A stretch of 64,000 nt of DNA from an uncultured bacterium (GCA_964613215.1 CAZTHK010000016.1:3966-67965); one strand, 5' to 3'. Positions 36,693 to 64,000 are shown, counted from the first letter of the stretch. Numbers and translations: made by a program. Notes: generated by a model not told the origin, from the letters alone.

Positions 36693-36709
36693 AGAAGAGA
36701 GGTAATGGA

Positions 36710-37754: not shown

Positions 37755-37756
37755 AG

Positions 37757-40789: not shown

Positions 40790-40862
40790 GATACTTGTTT
40801 TTTTGCTGTAGTTATTGTATTTATATATAATTATTGATAGTAATTAAGGGAGGTTCTTAAAA

Positions 40863-44466: not shown

Positions 44467-44550
44467 AGCGGGGATTATTATAAATCATGAAATTGCCCCG
44501 GCGGTTTAACAGGCTGGGGGCAGTATTTACTGAAAAGGCTGTTATTAATT

Positions 44551-45996: not shown

Positions 45997-48900
45997 ATGA
46001 ATAAAGATCCGAGAAATCCGGACAGGGGCAGTCTTTCATCGGCCAAGAGGGAACTTCTGAGGCGCAGGCTGAGGGGTAAATCAAAAAGTGTCTCTGCCCG
46101 GGGTGATATCATTCCCGGATCTGACAGGGAGAGTGCTCCCCTCTCGTCAGCTCAACAGAGATTGTGGTTCCTGGACCGGTATGAGACCGAGCAGCCGGTA
46201 TACAATCTGCCGGCGGCATACCGGATCAGAGGCGCCCTCAGGCCGGATATACTGCGGCGATGCCTGAACCATATCGCCCTCAGGCACCAGGTTCTGCGTA
46301 CCGTATTCAGACAGGTGGATGGTGAACCCCGCCAGGTTATAATGGAAGATATGGTGATAGAGATGCCGGTAGTGGATCTGAGCGGTTTTCACCCGGAGGA
46401 GAGGGAGAGGAAATCCATGGAGCTGGCTGAACAGGTAGCACAGCGGCGGTTTGACCTTTCCCGGGGCCCGCTGATAAGAGCTTCTCTGTTCAAACTGGAC
46501 CGCCGTGAATACATGCTGGTATTCTGTCTTCATCATATCATTTCGGATGGATGGTCCAATCATATCCTGATAGGCGAGCTGACCGAACTGTATGAGGCAT
46601 TCAGTGAAGGGAGGGAGCCGGAACTTCCTGAACTACCGGTTCAGTATGCTGATTTCGCCGCCTGGCAGAGAGAGAGGCTCAACCATGAGCAACTCCGTAA
46701 ACAGCTCCATTACTGGGAGGAGAAGTTGAAGGGTGCACCACCGGTTCTTCATCTTCCCACTGACACCACCAGGCCGCCGGTTCAGAGCTTCAGGGGGGAG
46801 TATCTTGAATTCGATCTGGAGGGGTACACTGCAGAAGCCCTACGGCAGCTCAGCAGGGAGGAAAATGCCACCCTGTTCATGACCCTCTTATCCGGCTTTG
46901 CTGTGCTGCTGTCCCGCTATTCCGGCCAGAAGGATCTGGTTATAGGTACCCCCATAGCCAACAGGAATCTCTATCAGGTGGAGAAACTGATCGGGTTCTT
47001 TGTCAACACTCTGGCCATAAGAGCGGATCTTACCGGTGACCCCGCTTTCCGTCAGTTAGTCGGAAGGATCAGGGAGACCGCCCTGGATGCTTTCTCACAT
47101 CAGGATATCCCCTTCGAAAGAATTGTGGAGGAGCTCAGACCGGAGAGAGACCTGAGCCGGACCCCTGTATTCCAGGTTATGTACGGTCATCAGAATATGC
47201 CGTTTCTCCAGATGGAACTGACCGGCCTGAAGATAGAATCGATAAAGATGCTCAGCTCTACAGCAAAATTCGACCTCATCATTACCACCTACAGTGATCC
47301 CCGTGGAATACATGGCTATGTTAATTACAACTCCGACCTGTTCAGCGGCACTACTGTAAAGAGGATGATTTCCCACCTTAAGAATATCCTGGTCAATGCT
47401 GCAGATAACCCTGATCTGAATATATCGCGTATTCCCATGATGACCGGGGAGGAGAAGTCCAGAATAGTATATAAATGGAATGATACAGGGGAATCAGATT
47501 ACACCGGAAAATTAATGCACCTGATGTTTGAACAGCAGGTCCGGGAGAGGCCCGGAGAAATGGCAGTGGTTTATCCCGGGGGAGAGCTGACATACCGGCA
47601 GCTTAATTCCAGGGTCAACCATCTGGCCCATTATCTCATCCGGAAGGGGGTGAAACCGGAGACCCGGGTGGGAATATGTATGGAACGTTCCCACCAGGCC
47701 CTTACCGGCCTGTTGGCGATATTAAAGTGCGGAGGCGTGTATATACCACTGGATCCATCCTATCCCTCCAGGAGGCTGAGTTTCATGATGGCTGACAGCG
47801 GGCTGAATATCATACTGACCGGTGATGAGACCGGTGAGATAGATGGAGTGGAAGGGAAGATGGTCATAAATATTGATAAGGAGTGGAAAAATATCGGCAA
47901 AGAAGATGACAGTAATCCGGATGTAAATATCAGCCCGGGCAATCTGGCTTATATAATATATACCTCCGGTTCAACCGGGCAGCCCAAAGGGGTGATGCTG
48001 ACTCACCGGGGGCTGGCCAACCTGGTATGCTGGCACCGGGATGAGTACCGGGTAAAACCGGATGACCGGGTTACCCATATGGGAAATCTCTCCTTCGATC
48101 TCTCCATCTGGGAGGTATGTCCCTGCCTGGCGGCAGGAGCTTGTATATTCATTCCCCCCGGGGAGGTAAGGTTGTCTCCAACCCGGCTGGTAGAGTGGCT
48201 GGAGAGCAGGGATATCGCCCTTTGCACCCTTCCCACCCCCATGGCGGAGGAGGTGATGGAGGAGGAGTGGCCGGGGGATATTCACCTCCGGGCGGTTTTT
48301 ACCGGTGGCGACAGGCTTACCAAGAGACCGGGGGAGGATCTGCCCTTCAGGTTGTTCAATCATTATGGCCCCACCGAGATAACTGTACTGGCAACCTCAG
48401 GAGAGGTCACTTCCCGACAGGGGGAAGGATATTCTCCTCCCTCCATAGGAAGAGCGGTGAGCAACACCGGTGTGTATATCCTGGATGAGAATATGCAGCC
48501 GGTACCACCGGGGGTGCCTGGCGAGATATGTATATCGGGTGCCGGACTGGCCAGGGGATACTGGAACCGCCCAGCTGTTACCGCTTCCAGCTTCGTGCCC
48601 CATCCCCTGAATGGAGGGGGGGGAGAGAGATTGTACCGGAGTGGGGACCGTGGCCGTTTTCTGGAGGATGGGAGCATTGAGTTCATGGGCCGGCTGGATG
48701 ATCAGATAAAGATAAGGGGTTACCGGATTGAACCATCCGGAATAGAAGTGGTACTTAATGATCATCCCGGTATCAGGGACGCTGCAGTATTGTTGAAGGA
48801 TAGCAGGAAAACCGGTGATAAGATACTGTCATGTTATGTGGTTCCCGAAGAAGGTAGCGAGCCCGGGGCGGATGAGATCCGGTCTTATCTGGGGGAACGG

Positions 48901-49383
48901 CTTCCCCGGTATATGATCCCATCTGTTTTTATAATCATGATTAATCTCCCCCTTACCGAGAATGGGAAGCTGGACCGGGATTCTCTGCCTCATCCGGATA
49001 GTGTGGAGCTGGAACGCAGCAGTGAATATGTTGCTCCCCGGGATGAACTGGAGAGAAAAATTGTCTCCCTGTGGGAAGAATTACTGCAGGTGGATAAGAT
49101 CGGAGTGGATGATAATTTCTTTGATATAGGGGGACATTCCCTTCTGCTGGTTAAGGTCAACCAGAGACTGGAAGATATGTTCAACCGGAAGATACCGGTA
49201 GTGGATATGTTCAAGTATCCCACCGTGGCGGCACTGACCCGCTACCTTTCCGGAGAGGGCGGTGGAGAGCCCGGGTTCCAATCGAGCAGGAAGAGGGGAG
49301 AGGCAAGAAGAAAATCACTCCGCAGAAGGAGTCTGCGCCGTAAGAGCAGCAGGGGCAGCAGAAGAGAGGATAAGCATGGATGA
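45997..49383 (+). CDS. Non-ribosomal peptide synthetase module: C-A-T (1128 aa).
   Basis: C domain: SSAQQRLWFLD (C1) and HHIISDGWS (C3). A domain: LAYIIYTSGSTGQPKGV, NHYGPTE, YRSGD, GRLDDQIKIRGYRIE, NGKLDR. T domain: FFDIGGHSLL. A 50-aa basic leader precedes the C domain and the C-terminal tail is basic and RS-rich. The stop overlaps the start of the next gene. Confidence 0.9.
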   Translation: MNKDPRNPDRGSLSSAKRELLRRRLRGKSKSVSARGDIIPGSDRESAPLSSAQQRLWFLDRYETEQPVYNLPAAYRIRGALRPDILRRCLNHIALRHQVLRTVFRQVDGEPRQVIMEDMVIEMPVVDLSGFHPEERERKSMELAEQVAQRRFDLSRGPLIRASLFKLDRREYMLVFCLHHIISDGWSNHILIGELTELYEAFSEGREPELPELPVQYADFAAWQRERLNHEQLRKQLHYWEEKLKGAPPVLHLPTDTTRPPVQSFRGEYLEFDLEGYTAEALRQLSREENATLFMTLLSGFAVLLSRYSGQKDLVIGTPIANRNLYQVEKLIGFFVNTLAIRADLTGDPAFRQLVGRIRETALDAFSHQDIPFERIVEELRPERDLSRTPVFQVMYGHQNMPFLQMELTGLKIESIKMLSSTAKFDLIITTYSDPRGIHGYVNYNSDLFSGTTVKRMISHLKNILVNAADNPDLNISRIPMMTGEEKSRIVYKWNDTGESDYTGKLMHLMFEQQVRERPGEMAVVYPGGELTYRQLNSRVNHLAHYLIRKGVKPETRVGICMERSHQALTGLLAILKCGGVYIPLDPSYPSRRLSFMMADSGLNIILTGDETGEIDGVEGKMVINIDKEWKNIGKEDDSNPDVNISPGNLAYIIYTSGSTGQPKGVMLTHRGLANLVCWHRDEYRVKPDDRVTHMGNLSFDLSIWEVCPCLAAGACIFIPPGEVRLSPTRLVEWLESRDIALCTLPTPMAEEVMEEEWPGDIHLRAVFTGGDRLTKRPGEDLPFRLFNHYGPTEITVLATSGEVTSRQGEGYSPPSIGRAVSNTGVYILDENMQPVPPGVPGEICISGAGLARGYWNRPAVTASSFVPHPLNGGGGERLYRSGDRGRFLEDGSIEFMGRLDDQIKIRGYRIEPSGIEVVLNDHPGIRDAAVLLKDSRKTGDKILSCYVVPEEGSEPGADEIRSYLGERLPRYMIPSVFIIMINLPLTENGKLDRDSLPHPDSVELERSSEYVAPRDELERKIVSLWEELLQVDKIGVDDNFFDIGGHSLLLVKVNQRLEDMFNRKIPVVDMFKYPTVAALTRYLSGEGGGEPGFQSSRKRGEARRKSLRRRSLRRKSSRGSRREDKHG

Positions 49384-52300
49384 ATCCAGTGAATATACCG
49401 GACTGGATGATATTGCCGTCATAGCAATGGATGGACGTTTTCCGGAGGCTTCAGGAATCGAACAGTTCTGGAAGAACCTCTGCCAGGGCAGGGAATCGGT
49501 ATCATTCTTTTCCGATCAGGAGCTGCTGGAAAGCGGGGTGGATCCGGAAATGATAAACCATCCGGACTATGTCAAGGCAGGCGCGGTGCTGGATGATATC
49601 TATGACTTCGATGCCCCCTTCTTCGGTATAAGTCCCCGGAATGCGGAGTTGATGGATCCGCAGCAGCGGCTGTTTCTTCAGTGCTGCTGGGCTGTTCTGG
49701 AGAAGGCGGGTTATAACGGTGGAGATTGGGGGGAAGGGGTGGGGGTTTTTGCCGGGGTAGGGCCGGATAATTATTACCGCAACAATATCATGGCAAACCG
49801 GGAGGTCTTCCGGTCGGCCGGAAGCCTTCAGCCACTGCTGGGCAATGACCGTAACTTTCTCTCCACCATGGTGTCCTACCGGATGGATCTGAGAGGTCCT
49901 TCCCTTACCCTTCAGACAGCCTGCTCAACCTCCCTGGTGGCGGTGCATCTGGCCTGCCAGAGCCTGCTGAACGGGGAGTGTGATCTGGCCATGGCGGGAG
50001 GGGTGACCATAAATATACCTCAGAAGACCGGATATCTTTACAGGGAGGGTGGAATTCCCTCCCGGGATGGACACTGCCGGACCTTCGACCGGGATGCCAG
50101 CGGCACGGTTTTCGGTAACGGAGCGGCGGTGGTGGCTCTGAAGCGGCTGGAGGATGCTGTCCAGGATGGCGATTTCATTTATACGGTGATAAAGGGCTCT
50201 GCGGTTAACAATGATGGATCGTTCAAGGTAGGTTATACTGCTCCCGGCGTGAGGGGTCAGTCGGGGGCCATCACCGAGGCAATATCTGTATCGGGAGTGG
50301 ATCCGGCTAGCATTTCCATGGTGGAAGCCCACGGTACCGGCACCGTACTGGGTGATCCCATAGAGATAGAAGCACTCACCCAGGCATTTAGTCAGTTCAC
50401 CGGCAGAAAACAGTACTGTGCGGTAGGCTCGGTAAAGACCAATGTAGGACACCTGGACACTGCCGCCGGGGTAACCGGGCTGATCAAAGCGGCCCTCTCC
50501 CTGTACCATGGCAAGATTCCTCCCAGTCTCAACTACTCCCGTCCCAATCCCAAGATAGATTTCGAGAATAGTCCCTTCTTCGTCAATACGGAATTAATGG
50601 ATTGGGATGGGGGGGGAGTGCCCAGGAGGGCGGGAGTGAGTTCCTTCGGGCTGGGCGGAACCAATGCCCATATAGTGATGGAGGAACCTCCCCGGAGGGA
50701 GGAATCCAGCAGTTCGGAGAGGGCATATCAGCTGATTACCCTCTCCGCAGCCAGTGACACCGCCCTGGATAGTTATGCCGCCGGTCTGTTGGATTATCTG
50801 CATGAAAATGAAGAGGTAAAAGCTGAGGATGTAGCCTTTACCCTGCAGAAGGGCCGCAGAAGGATGCCTCATAGGTTGGCTGTAGTATCGCGTTCCTCCG
50901 GAGGGGCAGTGGAGATAATGGAGGGTAGTTCTTCAGCTGGAGTTTTAAAGAGGGTGGAAGACAGCAGCAACCGGGAGGTGGTGTTCATGTTTCCCGGCCA
51001 GGGTGCTCAGTATGTCAACATGGGTGCCGGACTGTATCATTCGGAGCCATCTTTTCGCCGGCAGGTGGACCATTGCGCAGAGCTGCTGAAGGGTAGTCTT
51101 GGTTTTGATATCAGGAGTATTATATATCCCGGTAATGTAGAGAAGGATAAGGCATCGGAGAAGCTTACCCAGACTGAGATCACCCAGCCGGCTCTTTTCG
51201 TGGTGGAATATTCCCTGGCCCGGCTCTGGATGGAGTGGGGGATTGAACCCTCTGCCATGACCGGACATAGTATCGGAGAATTTGTAGCGGCCTGCCTGGC
51301 GGGGGTGTTCTCCCTGGAGGATTGCCTCAAGCTGGTGGTAGAGAGGGGCAGGCTGATGCAGCAGATGCCTCCGGGAAGGATGCTGGCGGTATTTCTGCCT
51401 GAACAGGAGGTGATCCCCCTCCTGCCGGATAAAGTTTCTCTGGCGGCGGTCAACCGTCCCGATGTAACTGTGATATCTGGAACTGTCCAGGATATGAATA
51501 AAATGGAGGAGAAGCTCAAGGCTGCCGGTACCGGATACAGAAGGCTGCATACCTCTCATGCCTTTCATTCCCACATGATGGATCCCATTCTGGAACCCTT
51601 TACCAGAGCGGTCAGCGGAGCCAATCCTTCCCCTCCATCCATACCATATATATCCAATATCACCGGAACCTGGATGGAACCTGAACGGGCGGAGGATCCG
51701 GCCTGCTGGGCCCGCCAGCTGAGGCGTACAGTGAGATTCTCCGACGGTCTAAGGGAGCTGTTTCGGAGACCGGAGAGACTCCTCCTGGAGGTGGGTCCGG
51801 GGAGGACTCTGACCACCCTGTCCGGACAGCATCCCGACAGGGATAAACAGCAGGAGGTGCTGAATTGTATCCGCCATCCCAGGGAGGAGAAGCCGGACCA
51901 CCTGTTTCTGATGGAGACATTGGGGAAGTTATGGATGAGGGGAGTGGATATAAACTGGTCCGGGATTTATCAGGATGAAAAAAGACAGATTGTTCCTCTG
52001 CCCTCCTATCCCTTCCAGGGAAAGACCTACCGGATAGAGCCGGATAAACCGGGGAAGAGAACCAGCGCTTTAACCCGGCGGAGGGAGCGGGAAGATGGGT
52101 CGGCAGGCTGGATATACCGGGAGGCGTGGTATCCCTTACCCCTGAGGAATTCAGCGGGGAAAGATGTGGGGAAGAATGTGAAAGATCCTGTGATGATATT
52201 CTATTACAAGAATCCCATGGTAGAGAGGCTGGTGGAAGAATTTTCCAGGAGGGGATATCCGGTGATAAGGATAACCGGGGGAAGCAACTTTACCCGGGAG

Positions 52301-55066
52301 GGGAAGGACGGATATGTTATAGATTATCACAATCCGGAGGATTACCTTGAATTGATCAGGGAGCTCCGATCGGATGAAATGATTCCCGGAACGGTTATTT
52401 TTCCGGTTATTGATGGTAGTAGCGGCGAAGCTGATCCGGCCCCGGGCAGGGTGGAACATTGTTTGGCGAGGGGTTTCTTCGCCCCGGTATTTATGGCCCG
52501 GGCATGGGGAGAAGAGGGCAGGGAGGGGAATATCAGGATGGTTTTTCTCTCCTCTGATACTCATGTGACCGGAGGTGAAAAGGATTCCAATCCCCTTGGT
52601 TCGGTTGCTATGGGCCCGGCCATGGTGATTCCCCTGGAGTATCCCAACATTAAATGCCGCAGTGTGGATGTGGATATACCCCCGGAGGGGAGCTGGTATC
52701 AGGAAAGGCTCTGCCGGATGGTGGCGGATGACATGATATCCGGAGATGACGAGCAGGTGGTGGCCTACCGGAATAACAACAGGCTGGCCAGGGAGTTCAG
52801 GATAGTCCCTCCTTCACCCGCAGATGACTCCGGGCCGGGTTTAAAAGATAAGGGAGTTTACCTGATAACCGGAGGTATGGGGGGTATGGGTATGGCCCTG
52901 GCTTCATATCTGGCCGGCCGGTTCGGGGCCAAGCTGGTACTTACCGGAAGGTCTGAGCTTCTGCCCCGGAAGAAGTGGGATAGCTGGCTGAATGAGAATA
53001 ACCGGGAGGATAGGGTCTCGGTCATAATCAGGGGGATCAGGGAGATGGAGGATAAGGGGGGGGAGGTAGTGGTGGAGAGTGTGGATGCAGCTGACCTGGA
53101 GGGTATGAAGTCATTGAAGAAGAGGGTGGAGCAGAGATGGGGCAGGGTGGACGGAGTGATACATGCCGCCGGGGTGGAGGGAAGCGGAATAATACAGACC
53201 AAAACCAGGGAGATGGCAGAGAAGGTTTTTTCGCCCAAGATTGTGGGCACCCTGGTTCTTCATCAGGTATTCCCACCGGGGACCCTGGATTTTATGGCTG
53301 TATGTTCATCCCTTAACTCGGTTGTTCCTGTGGTGGGACAGTCGGATTACTGTACCGCCAGTGTATTTCAGGACAGGTTTGCCTCCTGCCGGAGTGCTCT
53401 CAGCGGAGACAACACTGTAGCCATAGGATGGGACCGGTGGAAGGAGACCGGTATGGCGGTGAAAGCTGAAAGTCCCCTCTGGCTGAGGGCTGCCGCGAGT
53501 GGATCAGCTGACCGGGTAGAGGGAGCTCCACTGGTGGAAAGAAGTGTTTCCACCGGAGGGGAGGATAGAATCTACTCCACCATAATGAAGGTAGAAGATT
53601 TCTGGATACTTGATGAACACAGGATCGGGGGAAAGAGTGTGGTGCCAGGTACCGCCTTCCTGGAGATGGCGGTAGAAGCATTTACCCGGGGTGAAGAAAG
53701 CAGAATGGTGGAGATAGAAGATGCATCATTCATGTCTCCCCTGGTTGTGGGGGAGGATGAGAGCAGGGAGGTGCTGACTGTACTTACCGGGGAGGGGGAC
53801 TGGACTGAATTTAATATTTCCAGCAGGGAAAAGAGGGGGCGGGGTGAAAGGGCGGAGTATATCCGCCACGCATCCGGCAGGATCAGATTCGCCGGTGAAG
53901 GAGAGGAGATCGAAGAGCCGGATCTGTCCGCCATAATGAACAGATGCAGCCGGAGAAGGGAGAAGCAGAAGAAGAGGGAGGGCAGTGATGAAGGTATAAT
54001 TGCCCAGTACGGTCCCCGCTGGGATGTGCTGGAGAAGATTAAACTGGGAGAGGGGGAGGCTATTGCCTCTCTGAAATTACCTGAAAATTTCAGGAGCGAT
54101 CTGGATGATTACTATCTGCATCCATCCCTTCTGGATATTGCCACAGGATTTGCCGCGGGATATGCCAAGAGGGGTAATTATCTCCCCTTCTGGTACCGGA
54201 GATTGAGGGTGTTGAAGCCCCTCACTGCTGAGATCTACAGCCATGCAAGATTCAGGGAGGGGGGAGAGGAATCAGGAGAAACGGTTAGCCTGGATGTGGC
54301 AATAATGGATAAGGGGGGAAATCTTCTGGCTGTTATCGATGAGTATACCATGAAGCGGGTGGAGCGATTCGGCCTTAACCAGGAAGGCAGATCAGATGAA
54401 GGGGAGGCTATTACCGGGAAGGATGCCCGGGGTAAAATGGGGGAGAGTGACCCTGCCGGAAAGGGAGGCGGAGGATTATCGAACCGGGAGGGGATAGAAA
54501 TATTCCGGAGGGTTATACAGGAAGGCATATCTCCTCAGGCTCTTGTTTCCAGGGAGAAGCTGAACCGGAGGGTGGAGGAGGCCGGGCAATTTACCATCAC
54601 CAGGATAGAGGAGGAGGTGGAAGCACTTCACCGCAGGGAAGGAGGACATTCCCGTCCACCCAACCTGGGTGAGTATGTAGAACCAAACAATCCGGTGGAG
54701 GAGAAGCTGGCCGAAATATGGCAGCATCTGCTGGGTATAGACCGGGTGGGGATAAGGGATAACTTCTTCGATCTGGGCGGGGATTCGGTGATAGGCCTGC
54801 GTATAGTGGTAAAAGCCAAGGAGAATTCGATTATACTGACTCCTCCCCAGCTATTCGAACATCAGACCATAGAAGAACTGGCCGGGGTGGCAGGCAGCAG
54901 GAGAGAGGATGCGGTAAAGCCGCAGGAACCGGAAGAGGAGGAAGCCGGCGAAGGGGAGAAAAAGGAGCTGAGTCCGGAGAATCTTCCCGGTGCCGAACTT
55001 AATCAGGAGGAGCTGAAGAAATTACTGAACAGGATTGACCGGGAGGGTAAGGATCAGGATCAATGA
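49376..55066 (+). CDS. Type I polyketide synthase module, KS-AT-KR-DH-ACP (~1897 aa).
   Basis: KS: TACSTSLVAVHLACQSLLNGECDLAMAGG, EAHGTGT, GSVKTNVGHL. AT: GHSIGEFVAACLAG and HAFHS (malonyl-type motif). KR Rossmann fold GVYLITGGMGGMGMAL plus SDYCTAS. DH: LDEHRIGGKSVVPG (HxxxGxxxxP) and HPSLLD. ACP: FFDLGGDSV. ATG 49376 overlaps the upstream stop by 8 nt; the track ORF started at an internal upstream Met (49262). Confidence 0.85.
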   Translation: MDESSEYTGLDDIAVIAMDGRFPEASGIEQFWKNLCQGRESVSFFSDQELLESGVDPEMINHPDYVKAGAVLDDIYDFDAPFFGISPRNAELMDPQQRLFLQCCWAVLEKAGYNGGDWGEGVGVFAGVGPDNYYRNNIMANREVFRSAGSLQPLLGNDRNFLSTMVSYRMDLRGPSLTLQTACSTSLVAVHLACQSLLNGECDLAMAGGVTINIPQKTGYLYREGGIPSRDGHCRTFDRDASGTVFGNGAAVVALKRLEDAVQDGDFIYTVIKGSAVNNDGSFKVGYTAPGVRGQSGAITEAISVSGVDPASISMVEAHGTGTVLGDPIEIEALTQAFSQFTGRKQYCAVGSVKTNVGHLDTAAGVTGLIKAALSLYHGKIPPSLNYSRPNPKIDFENSPFFVNTELMDWDGGGVPRRAGVSSFGLGGTNAHIVMEEPPRREESSSSERAYQLITLSAASDTALDSYAAGLLDYLHENEEVKAEDVAFTLQKGRRRMPHRLAVVSRSSGGAVEIMEGSSSAGVLKRVEDSSNREVVFMFPGQGAQYVNMGAGLYHSEPSFRRQVDHCAELLKGSLGFDIRSIIYPGNVEKDKASEKLTQTEITQPALFVVEYSLARLWMEWGIEPSAMTGHSIGEFVAACLAGVFSLEDCLKLVVERGRLMQQMPPGRMLAVFLPEQEVIPLLPDKVSLAAVNRPDVTVISGTVQDMNKMEEKLKAAGTGYRRLHTSHAFHSHMMDPILEPFTRAVSGANPSPPSIPYISNITGTWMEPERAEDPACWARQLRRTVRFSDGLRELFRRPERLLLEVGPGRTLTTLSGQHPDRDKQQEVLNCIRHPREEKPDHLFLMETLGKLWMRGVDINWSGIYQDEKRQIVPLPSYPFQGKTYRIEPDKPGKRTSALTRRREREDGSAGWIYREAWYPLPLRNSAGKDVGKNVKDPVMIFYYKNPMVERLVEEFSRRGYPVIRITGGSNFTREGKDGYVIDYHNPEDYLELIRELRSDEMIPGTVIFPVIDGSSGEADPAPGRVEHCLARGFFAPVFMARAWGEEGREGNIRMVFLSSDTHVTGGEKDSNPLGSVAMGPAMVIPLEYPNIKCRSVDVDIPPEGSWYQERLCRMVADDMISGDDEQVVAYRNNNRLAREFRIVPPSPADDSGPGLKDKGVYLITGGMGGMGMALASYLAGRFGAKLVLTGRSELLPRKKWDSWLNENNREDRVSVIIRGIREMEDKGGEVVVESVDAADLEGMKSLKKRVEQRWGRVDGVIHAAGVEGSGIIQTKTREMAEKVFSPKIVGTLVLHQVFPPGTLDFMAVCSSLNSVVPVVGQSDYCTASVFQDRFASCRSALSGDNTVAIGWDRWKETGMAVKAESPLWLRAAASGSADRVEGAPLVERSVSTGGEDRIYSTIMKVEDFWILDEHRIGGKSVVPGTAFLEMAVEAFTRGEESRMVEIEDASFMSPLVVGEDESREVLTVLTGEGDWTEFNISSREKRGRGERAEYIRHASGRIRFAGEGEEIEEPDLSAIMNRCSRRREKQKKREGSDEGIIAQYGPRWDVLEKIKLGEGEAIASLKLPENFRSDLDDYYLHPSLLDIATGFAAGYAKRGNYLPFWYRRLRVLKPLTAEIYSHARFREGGEESGETVSLDVAIMDKGGNLLAVIDEYTMKRVERFGLNQEGRSDEGEAITGKDARGKMGESDPAGKGGGGLSNREGIEIFRRVIQEGISPQALVSREKLNRRVEEAGQFTITRIEEEVEALHRREGGHSRPPNLGEYVEPNNPVEEKLAEIWQHLLGIDRVGIRDNFFDLGGDSVIGLRIVVKAKENSIILTPPQLFEHQTIEELAGVAGSRREDAVKPQEPEEEEAGEGEKKELSPENLPGAELNQEELKKLLNRIDREGKDQDQ

Positions 55067-58000
55067 TTGATAAATCAAAGATAAAGGATATTTATACCCT
55101 TTCCCCCCTTCAGGAGGGAATACTGTTTCACTGCCTCTACGATCCCGGCTCGGGGGTATATATCAACCAGTATGTAATGCCTCTGGGCGGGGATACTGAT
55201 TTCGATTCTCTGGAGCGAGCCTGGCAGATGGTGGTAAATCGCCATCCGGTGCTCCGCACCTCCTTTCACTGGGAAGAAATGGAGAGGCCTCATCAGGTGG
55301 TATACCGCAGTGCCGGCCTCCGGATGGAGAAACTGGACTGGAGTGATATATCACCCCGGGATAGGGAGGGAAAACTGGAGGAGTTTCTGAAGAGGGACCG
55401 GAGAAGAGGGTTCGATCTTTCCAGTGTCCCCCTGATGAGACTGATACTTATAAAAATGGGCCGGGATGACTACAGGCTGGTATGGGACAGCCACCATATC
55501 GTAATCGATGCCTGGTCCGGATCACTGATATGGCGGGAGGTTTTAAGCTATTACCGGTCCTTCATCACCGGAGAAGAGATCAGCCTGGAGAAGCCCAGGC
55601 CTTACCGGGACTACATCATGTGGTTGAGGGAACGGGATCTCTCCAGGGCGGAACAGTACTGGAGGGAGGAACTCAAGGGGTTTACCCAGCCTAACATTCT
55701 GGAAGGGGAATCTCCATCTTCCGGTATGGATGAGCAGAAGGGAGAGGAGGGATACGGCGATCAGTCAATTAACCTATCCTCCCATCTGACCAGAAGGCTT
55801 AAGGAATTCGCCCGACGGAACAGGCTGACCCTTAATACCCTGATTCAGGGAGCATGGGCTGTACTGCTGAGCCGGTACAGCGGACAGGAAGATGTAGTTT
55901 ATGGATCCACCACTTCGGGAAGACCGGCTGAACTGGAGGGGGTGGATTCCATGGTGGGCCTGTTCATCAATACCCTGCCGGTAAGGATAAGAGTAGAGGG
56001 CGACCGGGAGGTGGTTTCGTGGCTCAGGGAGCTCCAGGGCAAACTGACCAGGGTGAGGGAGTATGAGTATTCCCCCCTGATAAAGGTGATGGAGTGGAGC
56101 GAGGTACCATCCGGTCAGCAGTTATTCCAGACTATCGTGGTATTCGAGAATGTCCCCTCCGGGGGAGAAGATTCCGGAGGGGAAGGAGGGATTTCTTCCG
56201 GGCGGAGCAGGTTCCTGTTCAGCACCAACTATCCGGTTACCCTGGTGATAAATCCAATGTCGGTAATGGGGCTGAGAGTGGTGTATGACCATAATCTGTT
56301 CGGTGATTCCCTGATGGAGGGGTTGCTGGAGCATCTGGAGGTTTTGCTGGGTGGTGTGGCGGAGGATGAGGGGAGGAGGCTGAGGGATCTGGATATCATG
56401 GGGGATGAGGAGAGGGAGCGGATACTGTACCGCTGGAATGACACCGGTTGTGAGTATGGGGGCAGTGAGAGCCTGGCCGGTATGTTCCGTGAGGCTGCCG
56501 GGAGGTACGGTGAGAGGGAGGCGGTTGTCTGCGGGGATGAATCGATCAGCTATAGTGAGCTGGATGAACGTTCGGACTGTCTGGCTGGTTATCTCCGGGG
56601 TCTGGGTGTGGGGTTTGAGGATCAGGTGGGTGTATATATGCACCGGGGATTGGATATGATGGTATCGGTTCTGGGGATATTGAAGGGGGGAGGAGCCTAT
56701 GTGCCCCTGGACCGGGAGTATCCGGTGGAGAGGTTAAGCTATATGGTGGAGTGCAGCGGGATAGAGGTTGTACTGGTGAGTGGTGGCGGAGGTGGTTTGA
56801 TACCCGGGATCCGGGAGACAGATGTGCTGGGGGATTGGGATGAGATATCGGTCTGCCGGGACAGCTGTCCCGGAGATGGGGTGAGTGGGGATAGTGTTGG
56901 GTATGTACTGTACACCTCCGGGTCCACGGGCAGGCCCAAGGGGGTATTGATGCCGGTGGGCAGTCTGGTGAATCTGATAAGGTGGCAGGTGGATGAGTTT
57001 GGAGATGAGGGAGCGGGTAGGAGGGTGTTGCAGTTTGCCTCGTTGAGTTTTGATGTATCGTTTCAGGAGATGTTTTCCACCTGGGTAAGCGGGGGAGTGG
57101 TGGATGTGGTTTCGTCTGAGGTTAAGAAGGATCCGGAGAGGTTGTGGGGGCATATAGCTGAGAGGGGTATAGAGAGGGTATTTTTGCCCTTTGTGGCGTT
57201 ACAGCAGCTGGCCGGGGTGTCGGGAGGAGGTATGAGGGGGAGTGAGTTGAAGGAGGTAATAACGGCTGGGGAGCAGTTGAGGGTGACTGAGTCTGTACGG
57301 GAGATGTTCCGCGGCAGTGGTTGCCGGCTGATAAATCAGTACGGGCCTACCGAGACGCATGTGGTTACGGCGGAGTGGCTGGGGGATGATGTGGATAGCT
57401 GGGAGGTATTGCCGTCGATAGGTGCTCCGGTTTCCAATGTGAGGTTATATCTTCTGGATGGGGATCTGGAGCCGGTACCGGTGGGAGTTGAGGGGGAGTT
57501 GTATGTGGGGGGTTCAGCTGTTTCGAGGGGGTATGGAGGGGAGGGAGGCAGGACGGCTGAGAGTTATCTGCCGGACCGGTATGGGGGAGGTGGCGGGAGG
57601 TTGTATGCTACCGGTGATATTGGCAGGTATCGTCCGGACGGGCGTATTGATTTTATTGGCAGGAGGGATGATCAGGTAAAGGTCAGGGGCTACCGGGTGG
57701 AGTTGGGAGAGGTTGAGAGTGTGTTGTGCGGATATGAGGGGGTCAGGGATGCGGTGGTGGTGAGCAGGGAGTATGAGGGCACCGGGGTTGGATTGACCGG
57801 GTATCTGATTATGGATGGAGATATTGAGGTGGATGGTTTGCGGGATTATCTGGGGGACCGTTTACCCGGCTATATGATACCGGCGGAATTTATCCGGGTG
57901 GATGAGTTTCCTCTGACCCCCAGCGGGAAGGTTGACCGTTCCGGGCTGCCTGAGCCGGAGGGGAGGAGGATCAGCAGGGGAGGGGAGTATGTTGCGCCGG

Positions 58001-58356
58001 AGACGGAGGTGGAGGAGGCGCTGGCTTCAGTTTGGTCGGAGATACTGGGTTTGGACCGGGTTGGCGTGGAGGACAACTTTTTTGAGCTGGGAGGGCATTC
58101 CCTTCTGGCTACCCGGGTGGTGTCGAGGGTGAGGGAGATGTTCCAGATAGAGCTTCCCCTGAGAACCCTGTTCGAGAAACCGGAACTCAAAAATCTGGCC
58201 GGAGAGATAGAGAAAATAGTGGAGGGGGGAGAGAGCAAATCTGCTCCGGAGATAAAACCGCTGGCCAGGGAGAAGAGGATAATAGATGAACTGGATGAGA
58301 TTACGGATGAAAAGGCAGGAAAAAGACTTAATCAGGAAGATAGAACAAATGAATAG
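55063..58356 (+). CDS. NRPS module C-A-T (1097 aa).
   Basis: C domain LSPLQEGILFH (C1) and HHIVIDAWS. A domain YVLYTSGSTGRPKGV, NQYGPTETHV, YATGDIGRY, GRRDDQVKVRGYRVE, PSGKVDR. T domain FFELGGHSLL. ATGA overlap with the PKS stop. Confidence 0.9.
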   Translation: MIDKSKIKDIYTLSPLQEGILFHCLYDPGSGVYINQYVMPLGGDTDFDSLERAWQMVVNRHPVLRTSFHWEEMERPHQVVYRSAGLRMEKLDWSDISPRDREGKLEEFLKRDRRRGFDLSSVPLMRLILIKMGRDDYRLVWDSHHIVIDAWSGSLIWREVLSYYRSFITGEEISLEKPRPYRDYIMWLRERDLSRAEQYWREELKGFTQPNILEGESPSSGMDEQKGEEGYGDQSINLSSHLTRRLKEFARRNRLTLNTLIQGAWAVLLSRYSGQEDVVYGSTTSGRPAELEGVDSMVGLFINTLPVRIRVEGDREVVSWLRELQGKLTRVREYEYSPLIKVMEWSEVPSGQQLFQTIVVFENVPSGGEDSGGEGGISSGRSRFLFSTNYPVTLVINPMSVMGLRVVYDHNLFGDSLMEGLLEHLEVLLGGVAEDEGRRLRDLDIMGDEERERILYRWNDTGCEYGGSESLAGMFREAAGRYGEREAVVCGDESISYSELDERSDCLAGYLRGLGVGFEDQVGVYMHRGLDMMVSVLGILKGGGAYVPLDREYPVERLSYMVECSGIEVVLVSGGGGGLIPGIRETDVLGDWDEISVCRDSCPGDGVSGDSVGYVLYTSGSTGRPKGVLMPVGSLVNLIRWQVDEFGDEGAGRRVLQFASLSFDVSFQEMFSTWVSGGVVDVVSSEVKKDPERLWGHIAERGIERVFLPFVALQQLAGVSGGGMRGSELKEVITAGEQLRVTESVREMFRGSGCRLINQYGPTETHVVTAEWLGDDVDSWEVLPSIGAPVSNVRLYLLDGDLEPVPVGVEGELYVGGSAVSRGYGGEGGRTAESYLPDRYGGGGGRLYATGDIGRYRPDGRIDFIGRRDDQVKVRGYRVELGEVESVLCGYEGVRDAVVVSREYEGTGVGLTGYLIMDGDIEVDGLRDYLGDRLPGYMIPAEFIRVDEFPLTPSGKVDRSGLPEPEGRRISRGGEYVAPETEVEEALASVWSEILGLDRVGVEDNFFELGGHSLLATRVVSRVREMFQIELPLRTLFEKPELKNLAGEIEKIVEGGESKSAPEIKPLAREKRIIDELDEITDEKAGKRLNQEDRTNE
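56294..57328 (+). repeat. Copy 1 of a >=1035-bp perfect direct repeat (A-domain coding segment of the 55063..58356 NRPS).
   Basis: Identical to 62966..64000 at an offset of 6672 nt (a multiple of 3). Spot-checked at several positions. Identical peptides in all frames of the ORF track (e.g. 56405..56659 equals 63077..63331). Confidence 0.9.
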
Positions 58357-58374
58357 ATCAGGAATTAAGTAGAA

Positions 58375-61300
58375 ATGACTGATAAATCATATATGTTTCC
58401 CCTTTCATTTGCCCAGCAGAGGCTCTGGTTCATGGAGCAGCTGGCTCCGGGTAAGCCCTTCTACAATCTGCCGTCGGCTCTGGATATAGAAGGGCCTCTG
58501 GAGGCAGAGATAATTAAGAAGAGCCTGAATGAGATAGTGAGTAGACACGAAACACTGCGTACCTGCTTTAAGAATGTGGATGGTGAACCCAGACAGGTGG
58601 TGCTGGATGCGGTGGAATTTGAAATGCCTCTGATCGATCTTTCCGGTATTCCTCCGGAGGAGCGCAGCAGAAAGGCTGATTCAATCTGCGCAGAGGAGGG
58701 GGTGAAACCGTTCCATCTTTCCTCTCCTCCGCTGTTCAGGGCCAGGCTGTTAAGAATGAACCGGCTGGAGCATATTCTGATATTCAATATACACCATATA
58801 ATAGCAGACGGCTGGTCTATGGGGGTGCTGATGGATGAAATCAAGAAGCTGTACAATATATTTTCAGGTGATAGCGGGGGCAAGCTGCCCTCTCTCCCCA
58901 TCCAGTACGCAGATTATGCGGTATGGCAGAGGAGGCATCTCAGGGGAAGGGTGATGGAATTGCATCTGGAGTACTGGAAGAAGAAGCTGGAGGGAGCTCC
59001 ACCTGTTCTGAGTCTCCCTTCGGACAGGCCCAGACCACCGGTTCCCAGCTTTACCGGGGACAACTATAATTTCCGGCTATCCGGCCATATCCATGATAGG
59101 GTTATCAGAATCTCGCGGGATCAGGGAGTTACCAGCTATATGATATTCATGGCTGCATTTGCTGCTCTGCTCTCCCGTTACAGCTGCCAGGATGATATGG
59201 TGGTAGGTTTTCCCATCGCCAACAGAACCAGGGCGGAGCTGGAAAAACTGATAGGATTCTTCGTCAATACCCTGGTTCTGCGTATCGGCCTCTCCGGCGA
59301 TCCCACCCTGAAGGAACTGATCCGAAGGGTCAGGGAGGTGGCTCTGGATGCTTACCAGCACCAGGATCTGCCCTTCGAGGTGCTGGTAAGGGAGTTGAGC
59401 CCGGAGAGGGATATCAGCATGAATCCCATCTGTCAGGTAGTGCTGGCCATGCAGAACACACCCCCCGATACAGAGGAGATCGAGGGACTGGAGATACATC
59501 ACCGGGAGATAAAGACCGGGACCACCCGCTTCGACATCGCTCTGCATATAAGGGAGGAGAAAGATGGAGGAGGGGTATTCACCGGCAACTGCATATACAG
59601 CACCGATCTGTTCGACCGTTCCACCATAGCCGGGATGGTGGATAACCTGGTAAAACTGCTGGAGCAGGGATTATCGGATCCCGGCCTTCCCCTCTCCAAC
59701 ATATCCCTGATGGATGCTGAAGAGGAAAGAAAGATTCTGATTGATTGGAACAGCACCGGGCGAGAATTATCCGGTCCGGGTACCATCCACGGAATGGTGG
59801 AGAAAGCGGTGGCTGTACATCCCGATGATACTGCGGTGGAGTGTATGGGTGATGACAGCAGGTTATCATACCGTGAGCTCGATTCAATGGCCGGACGGAT
59901 AGCCGCATTTCTGATCAGAAGAGAGCTGGGGAGGGAGGCTGCAGTGGGGGTATGTATGAGGCGTTCACCCGGTATGGTGGCTGCAGTACTGGGTATCCTC
60001 AGGGCGGGGATGGCATTTGTGCCAATGGATCCCGGCTATCCGGAGGAGCGCCTGAAATATATCACCGGCGATTCCGGTTCGGAGATTGTGATAACAGATA
60101 TCCTTCCGGCGGATTGCCGGTTGGGTGAAGGGACAGAGGTGGTTAAAATTGATACAATAGTGGAAAATCAGCATCCTGCCCGGGAACCCGCCGCCATTCC
60201 GGTTAAGGGAGATAACCTGGCTTACATTCTGTATACTTCCGGTACCACCGGAAGGCCCAAGGGGGTTATGATACAGCATTCCAGTGTGGTCAATTATACA
60301 AGCTGGGTATTGGAGAACCTCACCGGTGAGGGCTGTGTTATCCCCCTCTCCACCGGCCTGGTCTTCGATGCCTCCCTTAAGCAACTGTTTGGTTCACTGG
60401 CCTCCGGCAGGGGGGTGAAGATAGTTTCGGAAGAGGACCTCCTCGATCCGGAGGAGCTGTGCCGCTATTTGAGCAGTTTCAGCTCTGTTGCCTTCAACTG
60501 CGTACCATCCCTGTGGGAGACATTGATCGGAACACTGCAGGATCGGCGGGATAAAAATATGGATATGCCTGTAGACAGGCTGCTGCTGGGGGGAGAGAGC
60601 CTGAGCAGTGATCTGGTGGATAGAACCAGGGAAGTTCTGCCCGGTACGGAGATATGGAACCTTTACGGTCCCACCGAAACAACCGCCAATGTTACCGCAG
60701 CCATTCTGAACCGGAGGGGAGGGGTACCCATAGGGAGACCCCTTTGGAATACCCGGGTCTATGTACTGGATTGGGAGATGAAGCCTGTTGGCAGGGGTAT
60801 TCCCGGAGAACTTTATGTGGGTGGAATGGGAGTGGCAAGAGGATATCTAAACCGCCCCGCCCTGACCGCGGAAAGATTTGTTCCCCATCCCTTCGGTGAG
60901 GGGGAGAGGCTCTACCGCACCGGTGATCTGGTAAGATGGAATGAGGATGGAGAACTCGAATTTATCCGCCGGCTGGATGATCAGATAAAATTGAGAGGAT
61001 TTAGAATAGAACCTCAGGAGATAGAATCGGTACTGAGGAATTACCAGGGGGTGAAAGATTCATATGTAACACTCTGGGAAGGGGATGCAGGGGAGAGTAT
61101 GCTTGCGGCCTATATTTCGGGACCTTCCGGAATCTCCGGGGATAAGTTGAGGAGTTACCTGGCCGGGGAGCTTCCCTCCTATATGATTCCATCTGCTTAT
61201 GTATGGATGGAAGAATTACCGCGTGATAGTGCGGGCAGGTTAAACCGGGAACAGCTTCCCCCGCCCGGAATAGAGGGAACCGCCGAAGAGAAGGATCAGC

Positions 61301-61629
61301 ATCCCAGAAACGAGGTAGAGGAGGTTATCTCCGGAATATTCGGGGAGGTGGCGGGTGTGGACAGGGTGGGGATACATCAGGATTTCTTCACTCAACTGGG
61401 AGGTCATTCCCTGCTGGCCACTCAGCTGATGCTGCGTTTGAGGGATATACTCAGGTTCGAGGTGGATCTGCAGAATATCTTCCGCAGGCCCACAGTAGCG
61501 GGCCTGGCCGAACTGGCTGTGGAAGATCCCCGCAACCGGGAGAGGGTCAGAAAGGTGGCCCGGCATCTGATTGCCATAAGTAAACTCACAGATGAAGAAG
61601 TTGACCGAATGCTGTCGGAGGACCAGTGA
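58375..61629 (+). CDS. NRPS module C-A-T (1084 aa).
   Basis: C: SFAQQRLWFMEQ, HHIIADGWS. A: LAYILYTSGTTGRPKGV, NLYGPTETT, YRTGDLVRW, RRLDDQIKLRGFRIE, SAGRLNR. T: FFTQLGGHSLL. Confidence 0.9.
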   Translation: MTDKSYMFPLSFAQQRLWFMEQLAPGKPFYNLPSALDIEGPLEAEIIKKSLNEIVSRHETLRTCFKNVDGEPRQVVLDAVEFEMPLIDLSGIPPEERSRKADSICAEEGVKPFHLSSPPLFRARLLRMNRLEHILIFNIHHIIADGWSMGVLMDEIKKLYNIFSGDSGGKLPSLPIQYADYAVWQRRHLRGRVMELHLEYWKKKLEGAPPVLSLPSDRPRPPVPSFTGDNYNFRLSGHIHDRVIRISRDQGVTSYMIFMAAFAALLSRYSCQDDMVVGFPIANRTRAELEKLIGFFVNTLVLRIGLSGDPTLKELIRRVREVALDAYQHQDLPFEVLVRELSPERDISMNPICQVVLAMQNTPPDTEEIEGLEIHHREIKTGTTRFDIALHIREEKDGGGVFTGNCIYSTDLFDRSTIAGMVDNLVKLLEQGLSDPGLPLSNISLMDAEEERKILIDWNSTGRELSGPGTIHGMVEKAVAVHPDDTAVECMGDDSRLSYRELDSMAGRIAAFLIRRELGREAAVGVCMRRSPGMVAAVLGILRAGMAFVPMDPGYPEERLKYITGDSGSEIVITDILPADCRLGEGTEVVKIDTIVENQHPAREPAAIPVKGDNLAYILYTSGTTGRPKGVMIQHSSVVNYTSWVLENLTGEGCVIPLSTGLVFDASLKQLFGSLASGRGVKIVSEEDLLDPEELCRYLSSFSSVAFNCVPSLWETLIGTLQDRRDKNMDMPVDRLLLGGESLSSDLVDRTREVLPGTEIWNLYGPTETTANVTAAILNRRGGVPIGRPLWNTRVYVLDWEMKPVGRGIPGELYVGGMGVARGYLNRPALTAERFVPHPFGEGERLYRTGDLVRWNEDGELEFIRRLDDQIKLRGFRIEPQEIESVLRNYQGVKDSYVTLWEGDAGESMLAAYISGPSGISGDKLRSYLAGELPSYMIPSAYVWMEELPRDSAGRLNREQLPPPGIEGTAEEKDQHPRNEVEEVISGIFGEVAGVDRVGIHQDFFTQLGGHSLLATQLMLRLRDILRFEVDLQNIFRRPTVAGLAELAVEDPRNRERVRKVARHLIAISKLTDEEVDRMLSEDQ

Positions 61630-61650
61630 GTCATAAGAAGGAGAGAGATT

Positions 61651-64000
61651 TTGAACCGTTTCGATCTGTCCGATAAGGAGCGCCGTTTACTGGAGAAGAT
61701 GCTCGAAGCGGATGGGGTGGAAGCTTCAGCCGGAAGTATCAAACCCGGAGACAAGGAGGGTGAAATCCCCCTCTCCTATGCCCAGGAGAGACTCTGGTTC
61801 ATGGATCAGCTTATGCCGGAAAGTCCCTTCTACAATGAGATATCCGCATTCAGGACAGGAATGCCGGTAGACCGCTCCGCCATGGAACGAAGTATTAACA
61901 TGATCGTCCGGCGTCACCAGGTGCTCAGAACCTCCTTTCAGTCCAGGGAGGGCAGGCCCTATCAGAAGATACTGCCCCGGCTTGAGATAAAACTGGAGTA
62001 TACCGACCTCAGTGCATTGAGTGAACAGGAGCGGGAGGAGAGAGTACAGTCTATTGCCACCGAAGAGGTAAGAAAGCCCTTTGAACTGAGCAGCCCGCCC
62101 CGTATCAGAACCAGGTTGATCAAAACGGATGAACAGAGTTACGTGCTGTTGATAACCAAACATCATATTATTTCGGATGCCTGGTCCATCGGCGTTTTTA
62201 TCAGGGAATTATCTCAACTTTACCGTTCCTGTATCCGGAAGGAAGAACCATCTCTGCCCCGGCTTCCCATCCAGTATGCCGATTATGCCATCTGGCAGAG
62301 GGAATGGCTGGAAGGGGAGCTGCTGGAGAAACAGCTGTCATACTGGAGAAACAAGCTGGAAGGAGCCCCCTCCCGCTATACTCTTCCCCTCTCCGGAAAG
62401 AGGCCCCCGGTGGAGACATTCAGGGGAAGGAGGGTGAAAAGGAAGCTTTCCGGCCAGTTGGTTTCTTCGCTGAGATCCCTGTGCAGCAGGGAGAATGTTA
62501 CCATGTTCATGCTGATGATGGCGGCTTTCCAGACATTACTGTACCGGTACACCGGCCGGGGTGACACAGTGGTGGGTACCGGCATAGCCAACCGGAACAG
62601 GCCGGAGCTGGAGAATCTGATTGGCTTTTTTGTCAATACTCTGGTAATAAGGGTGGATATGTCGGATAATCCCACCTTCTCCGGGCTGCTCCGGAGGGTC
62701 AGGGAGACCACCCTGGAGGCATACCAGAATCAGGATGTTCCTTTCGAGAAACTGGTGGAAGAGATCCGGCCGGAGCGGGATCTGAGCAGCTCCCCACTGT
62801 TCCAGATAGCCCTCTTTTTCGAAAGCAATATGGCGCCCCGGGTGGATCTGGCCCGGTTAAACTTCGAGCCGATGGAGGTGGAGAGGGGCACCTCCAAGTT
62901 CGACCTTATTCTGTTTGTAACCGAGCAGGAAGAAAACATTACCTTCACCGCCGAGTACAACGTGGATCTGTTCGGTGATTCCCTGATGGAGGGGTTGCTG
63001 GAGCATCTGGAGGTTTTGCTGGGTGGTGTGGCGGAGGATGAGGGGAGGAGGCTGAGGGATCTGGATATCATGGGGGATGAGGAGAGGGAGCGGATACTGT
63101 ACCGCTGGAATGACACCGGTTGTGAGTATGGGGGCAGTGAGAGCCTGGCCGGTATGTTCCGTGAGGCTGCCGGGAGGTACGGTGAGAGGGAGGCGGTTGT
63201 CTGCGGGGATGAATCGATCAGCTATAGTGAGCTGGATGAACGTTCGGACTGTCTGGCTGGTTATCTCCGGGGTCTGGGTGTGGGGTTTGAGGATCAGGTG
63301 GGTGTATATATGCACCGGGGATTGGATATGATGGTATCGGTTCTGGGGATATTGAAGGGGGGAGGAGCCTATGTGCCCCTGGACCGGGAGTATCCGGTGG
63401 AGAGGTTAAGCTATATGGTGGAGTGCAGCGGGATAGAGGTTGTACTGGTGAGTGGTGGCGGAGGTGGTTTGATACCCGGGATCCGGGAGACAGATGTGCT
63501 GGGGGATTGGGATGAGATATCGGTCTGCCGGGACAGCTGTCCCGGAGATGGGGTGAGTGGGGATAGTGTTGGGTATGTACTGTACACCTCCGGGTCCACG
63601 GGCAGGCCCAAGGGGGTATTGATGCCGGTGGGCAGTCTGGTGAATCTGATAAGGTGGCAGGTGGATGAGTTTGGAGATGAGGGAGCGGGTAGGAGGGTGT
63701 TGCAGTTTGCCTCGTTGAGTTTTGATGTATCGTTTCAGGAGATGTTTTCCACCTGGGTAAGCGGGGGAGTGGTGGATGTGGTTTCGTCTGAGGTTAAGAA
63801 GGATCCGGAGAGGTTGTGGGGGCATATAGCTGAGAGGGGTATAGAGAGGGTATTTTTGCCCTTTGTGGCGTTACAGCAGCTGGCCGGGGTGTCGGGAGGA
63901 GGTATGAGGGGGAGTGAGTTGAAGGAGGTAATAACGGCTGGGGAGCAGTTGAGGGTGACTGAGTCTGTACGGGAGATGTTCCGCGGCAGTGGTTGCCGGC
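61651..64000 (+). CDS. NRPS module, 5' partial (C domain plus the start of an A domain). Continues beyond the window.
   Basis: TTG at 61651 after RBS aaggagagag. An alternative ATG is at 61696. C domain: LSYAQERLWFMDQ, HHIISDAWS. The open frame continues into an A domain (YVLYTSGSTGRPKGV) and runs to the window edge. It is absent from the ORF track because it is truncated. Confidence 0.85.
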   Translation, partial: MNRFDLSDKERRLLEKMLEADGVEASAGSIKPGDKEGEIPLSYAQERLWFMDQLMPESPFYNEISAFRTGMPVDRSAMERSINMIVRRHQVLRTSFQSREGRPYQKILPRLEIKLEYTDLSALSEQEREERVQSIATEEVRKPFELSSPPRIRTRLIKTDEQSYVLLITKHHIISDAWSIGVFIRELSQLYRSCIRKEEPSLPRLPIQYADYAIWQREWLEGELLEKQLSYWRNKLEGAPSRYTLPLSGKRPPVETFRGRRVKRKLSGQLVSSLRSLCSRENVTMFMLMMAAFQTLLYRYTGRGDTVVGTGIANRNRPELENLIGFFVNTLVIRVDMSDNPTFSGLLRRVRETTLEAYQNQDVPFEKLVEEIRPERDLSSSPLFQIALFFESNMAPRVDLARLNFEPMEVERGTSKFDLILFVTEQEENITFTAEYNVDLFGDSLMEGLLEHLEVLLGGVAEDEGRRLRDLDIMGDEERERILYRWNDTGCEYGGSESLAGMFREAAGRYGEREAVVCGDESISYSELDERSDCLAGYLRGLGVGFEDQVGVYMHRGLDMMVSVLGILKGGGAYVPLDREYPVERLSYMVECSGIEVVLVSGGGGGLIPGIRETDVLGDWDEISVCRDSCPGDGVSGDSVGYVLYTSGSTGRPKGVLMPVGSLVNLIRWQVDEFGDEGAGRRVLQFASLSFDVSFQEMFSTWVSGGVVDVVSSEVKKDPERLWGHIAERGIERVFLPFVALQQLAGVSGGGMRGSELKEVITAGEQLRVTESVREMFRGSGCR
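62966..64000 (+). repeat. Copy 2 of the perfect direct repeat, truncated by the window edge.
   Basis: See copy 1. The identity begins exactly at the C-A linker (…DLFGDSLMEGLLEHLEVLLGG) of the last NRPS gene. Confidence 0.9.

Follow-up and report, generated by a model that had tools for sequence, protein, structure and literature searches.

We analysed a window of 64,000 nt from the genome of an uncultured bacterium (GCA_964613215.1, CAZTHK010000016.1:3966-67965), itself part of a 97,217-bp NCBI contig, in which positions 45997 to 64000 carry five plus-strand megasynthase genes. Very probably, this locus is the 5' part of an operon for a hybrid assembly line of nonribosomal peptide synthetases (NRPS) and a cis-acyltransferase (cis-AT) type I polyketide synthase (PKS), situated at a synteny break after the obg gene of an uncultured Krumholzibacteriota-like host. 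Pfam matches with E-values from 1e-10 to 1e-117 gave the domain order C-A-T / KS-AT-(psiKR)KR-DH-ACP / C-A-T / C-A-T / C-A... across the five genes. Gene 1 (45997..49383, + strand; 1128 aa) was recognised from Pfam matches and motifs as an NRPS module of condensation (C), adenylation (A) and thiolation (T) domains, and gene 2 (49376..55066, +; 1896 aa) as a type I PKS of the order KS-AT-psiKR/KR-DH-ACP, an identical protein being present in the Logan assembly and at NCBI. Gene 3 (55063..58356, +; 1097 aa) is a further C-A-T module whose protein is identical to P0002, and gene 4 (58375..61629, +; 1084 aa) is another, its exact protein also occurring in the Logan assembly. Gene 5 (61651..64000, +) is cut by the window end in its C-A(-T) module; its full product, P0001, has 1101 aa and the order C-A-T, and its end would fall near 64956 in extended window coordinates. 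Genes 1 and 2 overlap by 8 nt and genes 2 and 3 by 4 nt (ATGA), while gaps of 18 nt and 21 nt separate gene 3 from gene 4 and gene 4 from gene 5. Active-site motifs were seen in every carrier, C, A-domain-bearing, KS, AT and DH unit, with the exception of the A10 and A8 motifs of gene 4 and of the ketoreductase (KR) tetrad in gene 2, where Ser stands for Asn.

The gene preceding the cluster is the GTPase gene obg (44551..45537, +; Pfam GTP1_OBG and MMR_HSR1), the last member of a conserved host synteny block. Between it and gene 1 lies an AT-rich intergenic stretch of 459 bp (45538..45996), with 34.6% GC versus about 50-55% in the flanks, which presumably serves as the promoter or leader of the operon. 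All open reading frames (ORFs) inside this spacer are 46 aa or shorter; a promoter and terminator scan of it returned promoter-like counts equal to the shuffled expectation, terminator-like counts modestly above it and no convincing site. Rfam yielded no match over the whole window, the spacer giving only a chance-level viral element (best E = 0.97). Within 45997-64000, Pfam detected no thioesterase (TE), phosphopantetheinyl transferase (PPTase), MbtH, tailoring or transporter domains. The full product of gene 5 likewise lacks a release domain, its T domain being the last, and closes with an acidic C-terminal tail of the 'SEEEARRLL' type that resembles the tails of genes 2-4; from this tail and the missing release domain it follows that the line continues on genes past the window. 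The first-pass annotation had described five colinear, translationally coupled megasynthase genes in this domain order, which ORF calls and Pfam bear out, joined by 4-8 nt overlaps and 18-21 nt gaps, which are exact. Its placement of the cluster start right after obg and an AT-rich region of about 460 bp agrees with the spacer measured here, and its statements that no TE, tailoring, PPTase, MbtH or transporter gene occurs up to the window end, and that the cluster is incomplete and runs on downstream, were upheld by Pfam and by the full-length gene 5 product.

The Obg protein encoded next to the cluster is 58-59% identical to named Candidatus Krumholzibacteriota and Latescibacteria proteins and 64% identical to its best relative overall, while no obg relatives were confirmed in species-representative genomes. 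A ten-gene order ending in obg (pilM-pilN-pilO-x-pilQ-rsmD-coaD-aminotransferase-FAD oxidase-obg) is kept, at 41-75% amino acid identity, in the Krumholzibacteriota genome GCA_016933255.1 and in a contig of ENA ERZ27256778; in neither of these does an NRPS or PKS come after obg, ordinary unrelated genes lying there instead, and NRPS-like sequence is absent within 8 kb. These comparisons suggest a Krumholzibacteriota-like host, the phylum assignment being approximate, and place the cluster, as judged by gene order, at a synteny break directly after obg. Because obg precedes unrelated ordinary genes, without NRPS-like sequence, in both syntenic relatives, the spacer between obg and gene 1 forms the left boundary of the cluster. 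The upstream aminotransferase and FAD oxidase were considered as tailoring genes and rejected, since they are syntenic in relatives without the cluster and are thus host genes. The earlier claim that the genome encodes proteins sorted by the type IX secretion system (T9SS), as in an FCB-like host, is supported by TIGR04183 (T9SS type A sorting domain), which scores 32.1 bits versus a cut-off of 23 on the product of 12564-14294(-); the Pfam counterpart of this domain stayed below its cut-off on the same product.

Gene 2 combines a ketosynthase (KS) Cys-His-His triad, an AT with the GHSxG motif and a carrier protein, the hallmarks of a cis-AT type I PKS. All its domains lie on the plus strand: the KS (49406..50536) carries TACSTS with the active-site Cys, HGTGT and NVGH; the AT (50981..51817) carries GHSIG and HAFH; the KR structural subdomain and catalytic KR (52187..53446) retain the Rossmann motif, Lys, Ser and Tyr; the dehydratase (DH; 53528..54367) carries HRIGGKSVVP (HxxxGxxxxP), YGPRW and HPSLLDIAT; and the acyl carrier protein (ACP; 54701..54886) carries DLGGDSV. 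HAFH is the malonyl-CoA signature, and the AT is accordingly predicted to be malonyl-specific. The module departs from the canonical order KS-AT-DH-KR-ACP, as the DH (residues 1385-1664) follows the KR (1160-1357). Searches with the full-length protein retrieved modular KS-AT-KR-ACP synthases at 40-47% identity, with coverage restricted to KS-AT-KR, and the best PDB matches of the DH were DH domains of trans-AT PKS and CurF. The KR-DH-ACP part was looked at separately in a profile-free scan against 1.84 billion representatives, of which the best 149 non-self 50%-cluster representatives were considered. About 80 of these 149 give a single alignment over KR-DH-ACP, which typically falls at residues ~1150-1850 of ~1860- or ~2330-aa proteins, and each of the four that were checked has KS-AT-KR-DH-ACP at the same residue positions. 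Unlike gene 2, some of its relatives carry a C-terminal luciferase-like monooxygenase: P0400, one of the checked proteins, continues after KS-AT-KR-DH-ACP into a domain of the MupA/Atu3671 type, and the similar lengths of P0388, P0398 and P0404 (~2320-2370 aa) suggest a recurrent sub-architecture.

The same arrangement is found in ClbB of the colibactin pathway (E. coli pks island), whose order C-A-T-KS-AT-KR-DH-ER-T agrees with the literature (PMC5490422). In tblastn searches, the domains of genes 1 and 2 aligned colinearly with CFT073 clbB, namely C at 46-1443, A at 1507-2916, T at 2992-3195, KS at 3259-4512 (46%), AT at 4792-5565 (42%), KR at 6629-7120, DH at 7202-7978 (KR and DH forming one alignment of 25%) and ACP at 9269-9484. 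Both systems thus have an NRPS C-A-T that feeds a malonyl-specific KS-AT, a KR before the DH and the carrier in last place. They differ in that ClbB is one polypeptide with an enoylreductase (ER), while here two proteins with an 8-nt overlap do without any ER that we could find; in that identities reach only 25-46% and no ClbB equivalog appears among the best NCBIfam matches listed; and in that three more C-A-T genes follow here, not the clbC-clbQ set. Because many representatives and the characterised ClbB share the order, KR-before-DH is a known and widespread module variant and not a novelty. One paper writes 'KS-AT-KR-DH-ACP-TE', but this appears to be a functional listing and was not taken as a primary order. 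A PfaA/enediyne-type iterative PKS was also considered for gene 2 and set aside in view of its C-terminal carrier, its modular KS-AT-KR-ACP best full-length relatives and the flanking NRPS genes.

The four C domains of the NRPS genes were detected with Pfam E-values of 1e-89 to 1e-117, and all contain the catalytic HHxxxD(G/A) motif (HHIISDG in gene 1, HHIVIDA in gene 3, HHIIADG in gene 4, HHIISDA in gene 5). The carrier serine motif reads GGHSL in genes 1, 3, 4 and 5, and GGDSV in the ACP of gene 2. Among solved structures, the C domain of gene 1 matched the elongation domains Txo1 (364 bits), Txo2 (355) and TycC6 (279) best, compared with 69 bits for the starter domain RzmA-C1, and the C domains of genes 4 and 5 rank PDB entries as that of gene 1 does, the best matches of the three being Txo1, Txo2, 5U89 and TycC6 at 250-364 bits. 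On this ranking of PDB matches, which is not a phylogeny, the C domains of genes 1, 4 and 5 class as LCL-like domains of the elongation type, and that of gene 3, with McyB, PvdL, SrfA-C and TycB1 as best matches, would be DCL-like, as expected for the acceptor of an ACP-bound chain. Gene 1 is further extended by 45 aa at its N-terminus, and its C-terminal tail is very basic, being rich in Arg, Lys and Ser at 49170-49383 (RRKSLRRRSLRRKSSRGSRRE); gene 2 opens at 49376-49420 with an acidic stretch (MDESSEYTGLDD); the basic tail and the acidic start may constitute an electrostatic docking pair.

The nearest cluster that we found, L080 (Logan SRR7614767, contig 88876, 3399-16710), is colinear with genes 1-2-3 and shares 47% identity with gene 1, 46% with gene 2 and 50% with the N-terminus of gene 3. 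As in the cluster described here, a KS-AT-KR-DH-ACP PKS stands between C-A-T modules with 4-nt overlaps, but an extra module is fused before the gene 1 equivalent, which is thereby module 2 of a two-module protein, as would fit an elongation role of gene 1. By its class, gene 1 opens with an ordinary elongation (LCL-like) C domain and not with a lipo-starter; the real start of the assembly line is probably encoded outside the window. The first-pass annotation had foreseen a 'lipo' component of the product, and this part found no support, because the C domain at the N-terminus of gene 1 groups with elongation LCL domains. The corresponding alternative, in which gene 1 is a true initiation module whose C domain would use a fatty acyl-CoA or an acyl-ACP to acylate the nitrogen of amino acid 1 and give a lipopeptide-polyketide, is in our view unlikely: gene 1 does come first after a 459-bp non-coding stretch and a conserved housekeeping block, there is no A-T loading module upstream of it, and L080 likewise opens with a C domain, but that opening domain is of another type (LTPVQEGILFH, not LCL-like), the gene 1 homologue of L080 is the second module, and the C domain of gene 1 resembles the internal ones of genes 4 and 5 in its PDB ranking and matches solved elongation domains far better than the solved starter.

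TIGR01733 was above its cut-off in all four A domains, and the A motifs are complete in genes 1, 3 and 5 (A3, A5, A8 and A10 in the case of gene 1). Specificity codes, whose prediction had been proposed beforehand, were read against a GrsA-PheA segment, with a numbering that reproduced DAWTIAAICK, and were compared with a set of known codes. Gene 1 gave DLWTFGHVLK, which agrees with none of the codes in this set; gene 4 gave DAKNLGLANR; and genes 3 and 5 share DVQFIAQVVK, which agrees at 8 of 10 positions with the proline code DVQLIAHVVK. The A domains of genes 3 and 5 are thus predicted to be proline-like. None of the three codes was present in the literature searched. In gene 4 (61200-61260, residues ~945-965), the A10 motif is AGRLNR, in which Arg replaces the otherwise invariant catalytic Lys, and A8 is RRLDDQIKLRG, with RR for GR. 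Among 105 distinct A9-A10 segments from the fetched loci, gene 4 included, the Lys-to-Arg exchange at A10 was counted three times, two of them in the unrelated metagenome locus L060, so that it appears to be rare but not unique.

The identity of genes 3 and 5 extends well beyond their codes. Residues ~411-1050 of gene 3 and ~439-1078 of gene 5 are 100% identical at the protein level, and so is the DNA of 56294-57328 and 62966-64000, over the 1035 nt visible in the window. The first copy of this repeat of about 1.9 kb (56294..58212, +; right edge inferred from the start of Logan contig L001) comprises the final ~45 aa of the C domain in gene 3, the entire A domain and the T domain; the second (62966..64000, +) lies in gene 5, runs past the window and would end near 64884. 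The identical A-T units of modules 3 and 5 point to a very recent duplication or gene conversion within the cluster. GC skew is positive across the window (0.05-0.46) and peaks at 56-59 kb, within this glycine-rich repeat unit.

From these domains we propose the following assembly line. The LCL-type C domain of gene 1 would join amino acid 1 to an aminoacyl or peptidyl group supplied by an upstream donor that the window does not encode. The KS of gene 2 would then take over the gene 1 chain and add one malonate, after which KR and DH would convert the beta-keto group to an alpha,beta-enoyl group and so generate a vinylogous (gamma-amino-alpha,beta-unsaturated) residue; since gene 2 contains no ER, the unit should stay at the enoyl stage and not be saturated. 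In gene 3, the DCL-like C domain would couple the enoyl chain to a proline-like residue, gene 4 would add a residue X and gene 5 a second proline-like residue, and the line would go on via genes beyond the window. Syrbactin-type (syringolin/glidobactin) and gallinamide-type pathways make vinylogous amino acids. The predicted enoyl unit of the present cluster would resemble theirs in that an amino acid and one malonate are turned by KR and DH into an alpha,beta-unsaturated gamma-amino acyl unit within a peptide, whereas domain order, downstream modules and host are different.

Several points weigh against reading the locus as the 5' part of such an assembly line. Short reads cannot fix how often and in which order the repeated unit occurs; C-domain classes and specificity codes were assigned in the manner given above; and neither a loading module nor a PPTase, a release domain or an exporter turned up in the window, so that completeness and functionality of the line are unproven. 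In addition to the A10 and A8 deviations of gene 4, the KR of gene 2 reads YCTAS at 53340-53360, where 12 of 12 aligned KS-AT-KR-DH-ACP relatives have the Asn of YxxAN, and either the gene 4 A10 Arg or the gene 2 KR Ser could lower activity. The earlier estimate of at least four amino acids and one malonate unit shares the first of these difficulties: domain order and malonyl signature agree with it, but the module count is taken from a contig with a perfect repeat of about 1.9 kb.

Carried further, the A10 and A8 changes of gene 4, the YCTAS of the KR and the accessory genes not seen in the window would fit a decaying, non-producing relic. We hold this to be very unlikely, as the reading frames are unbroken over 18 kb and tightly coupled, the remaining catalytic motifs are intact, other intact NRPS loci show the A10 exchange too (twice in L060), and a perfect repeat indicates that a locus still being maintained has recombined recently.

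The integrity of the contig was examined with independent assemblies and composition. Logan contig L003 (run SRR7048228; 16,456 bp, 4 samples) is 100% identical to window positions 39868-56323 and covers rsmD, obg, the spacer, genes 1 and 2 and the start of gene 3, and L001 is identical to 58183-62995, covering the gene 3 tail, gene 4 and the C domain of gene 5. In each repeat copy, the Logan contigs end after exactly 30 nt, as is expected for a true repeat in a graph with k = 31, a value that we assume for the Logan build. Both entries to and both exits from the repeat are seen, and the arrangement in the window is the sole linear path that uses all of them. Tetranucleotide signatures of all pairs of 9-kb chunks correlate at r = 0.86-0.96 with no outliers among the cluster chunks, and GC at third codon positions is 0.60-0.66 in the cluster versus 0.58-0.73 upstream. 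A chimeric join at ~45.5 kb is ruled out by the spanning assembly and the uniform composition; chimerism or a GC discontinuity at this very position had been named beforehand as an observation that could overturn the cluster, and no break of assembly or composition was found there. We therefore hold it very unlikely that the locus is wholly or partly an assembly artefact, with a foreign cluster joined at ~45.5 kb or a gene 3-4-5 order invented at the repeat, for although a 100% identical repeat interrupts the Logan contigs in each copy and short reads cannot count its copies, L003 crosses from obg into gene 3, L001 joins the gene 3 tail to gene 4 and the gene 5 C domain, and composition is uniform.

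Comparison with known systems is consistent with the earlier suggestion that the cluster is likely uncharacterised, as none of its proteins reached an NCBIfam equivalog cut-off for a named synthetase and their best homologues are 43-50% identical; a close match to a characterised cluster, the other observation named beforehand as able to overturn the claim, was thus not seen among named synthetase families. Apart from L080 and a second locus, L081, relatives of gene 5 are at most 48% identical, save for one short fragment at 56% (the best match in JGI metagenomes being otherwise 47%). In L081 (GCA_964425365.1), an uncharacterised environmental cluster as is L080, the genes on both sides of the KS-AT-KR-DH-ACP PKS are two-module NRPS genes, here too with 4-nt overlaps, and two hydrolases come next; L080 adjoins a gene for a T9SS-sorted S8 protease and a PorP/SprF-like gene. 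P0036 was considered as a possible orthologue and dismissed because it sits in a different, all-NRPS cluster. No description of an NRPS/PKS product from Krumholzibacteriota was found in the literature.

Elsewhere in the window, nearly all long ORFs lie on the plus strand, 12564-14294 being the sole clear minus-strand gene. Positions 22704-39775 hold a complete type IV pilus block (pilB, a pilT-like gene, pilC, pilS, pilR, candidate pilins and pilMNO-x-pilQ), the 3' part of which is syntenic with Krumholzibacteriota genomes (L077, L078). An ORF of 1156 aa at 3037-6507, without Pfam or NCBIfam match, is preceded by a gene for an NHL-repeat protein (2123-3112) and followed by one for a POTRA-domain protein (6473-8152), and two adjacent ORFs of 312 and 273 aa at 390-2160 each gave only a weak, sub-threshold DUF5683 match.

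The locus is a genuine, apparently intact but incomplete orphan hybrid NRPS-PKS cluster. Such clusters are common in environmental genomes, and this one is a routine genome-mining lead that will not surprise the specialist, because catalogues of FCB candidate phyla, e.g. KSB1 (PMC11361885), already list PKS-NRPS hybrids, and related clusters occur in other T9SS-bearing organisms. Current understanding is left unchanged, since thousands of comparable orphan clusters exist in catalogues of metagenome-assembled genomes. A more ambitious view would make it the first assembly-line pathway of a Krumholzibacteriota-like lineage, with a vinylogous Michael acceptor and a Pro-X-Pro segment in a possible covalent protease or proteasome inhibitor, and its ClbB-like module, with the KR ahead of the DH, a separate type of building block that is widespread in environmental hybrid lines and has so far gone undescribed; this we consider quite improbable. 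What the cluster does provide is one orphan hybrid system with a defined left boundary for a candidate phylum from which, to the best of our knowledge, neither cultured members nor natural products are known. It also yields testable predictions: that the product contains an enoyl (vinylogous) residue, that two modules of the line are identical and proline-like, and that the start module lies elsewhere. Moreover, the perfect A-T repeat is a clean natural case of the duplication of part of a module, and it bears both on how NRPS diversify and on the choice of recombination points for their engineering.

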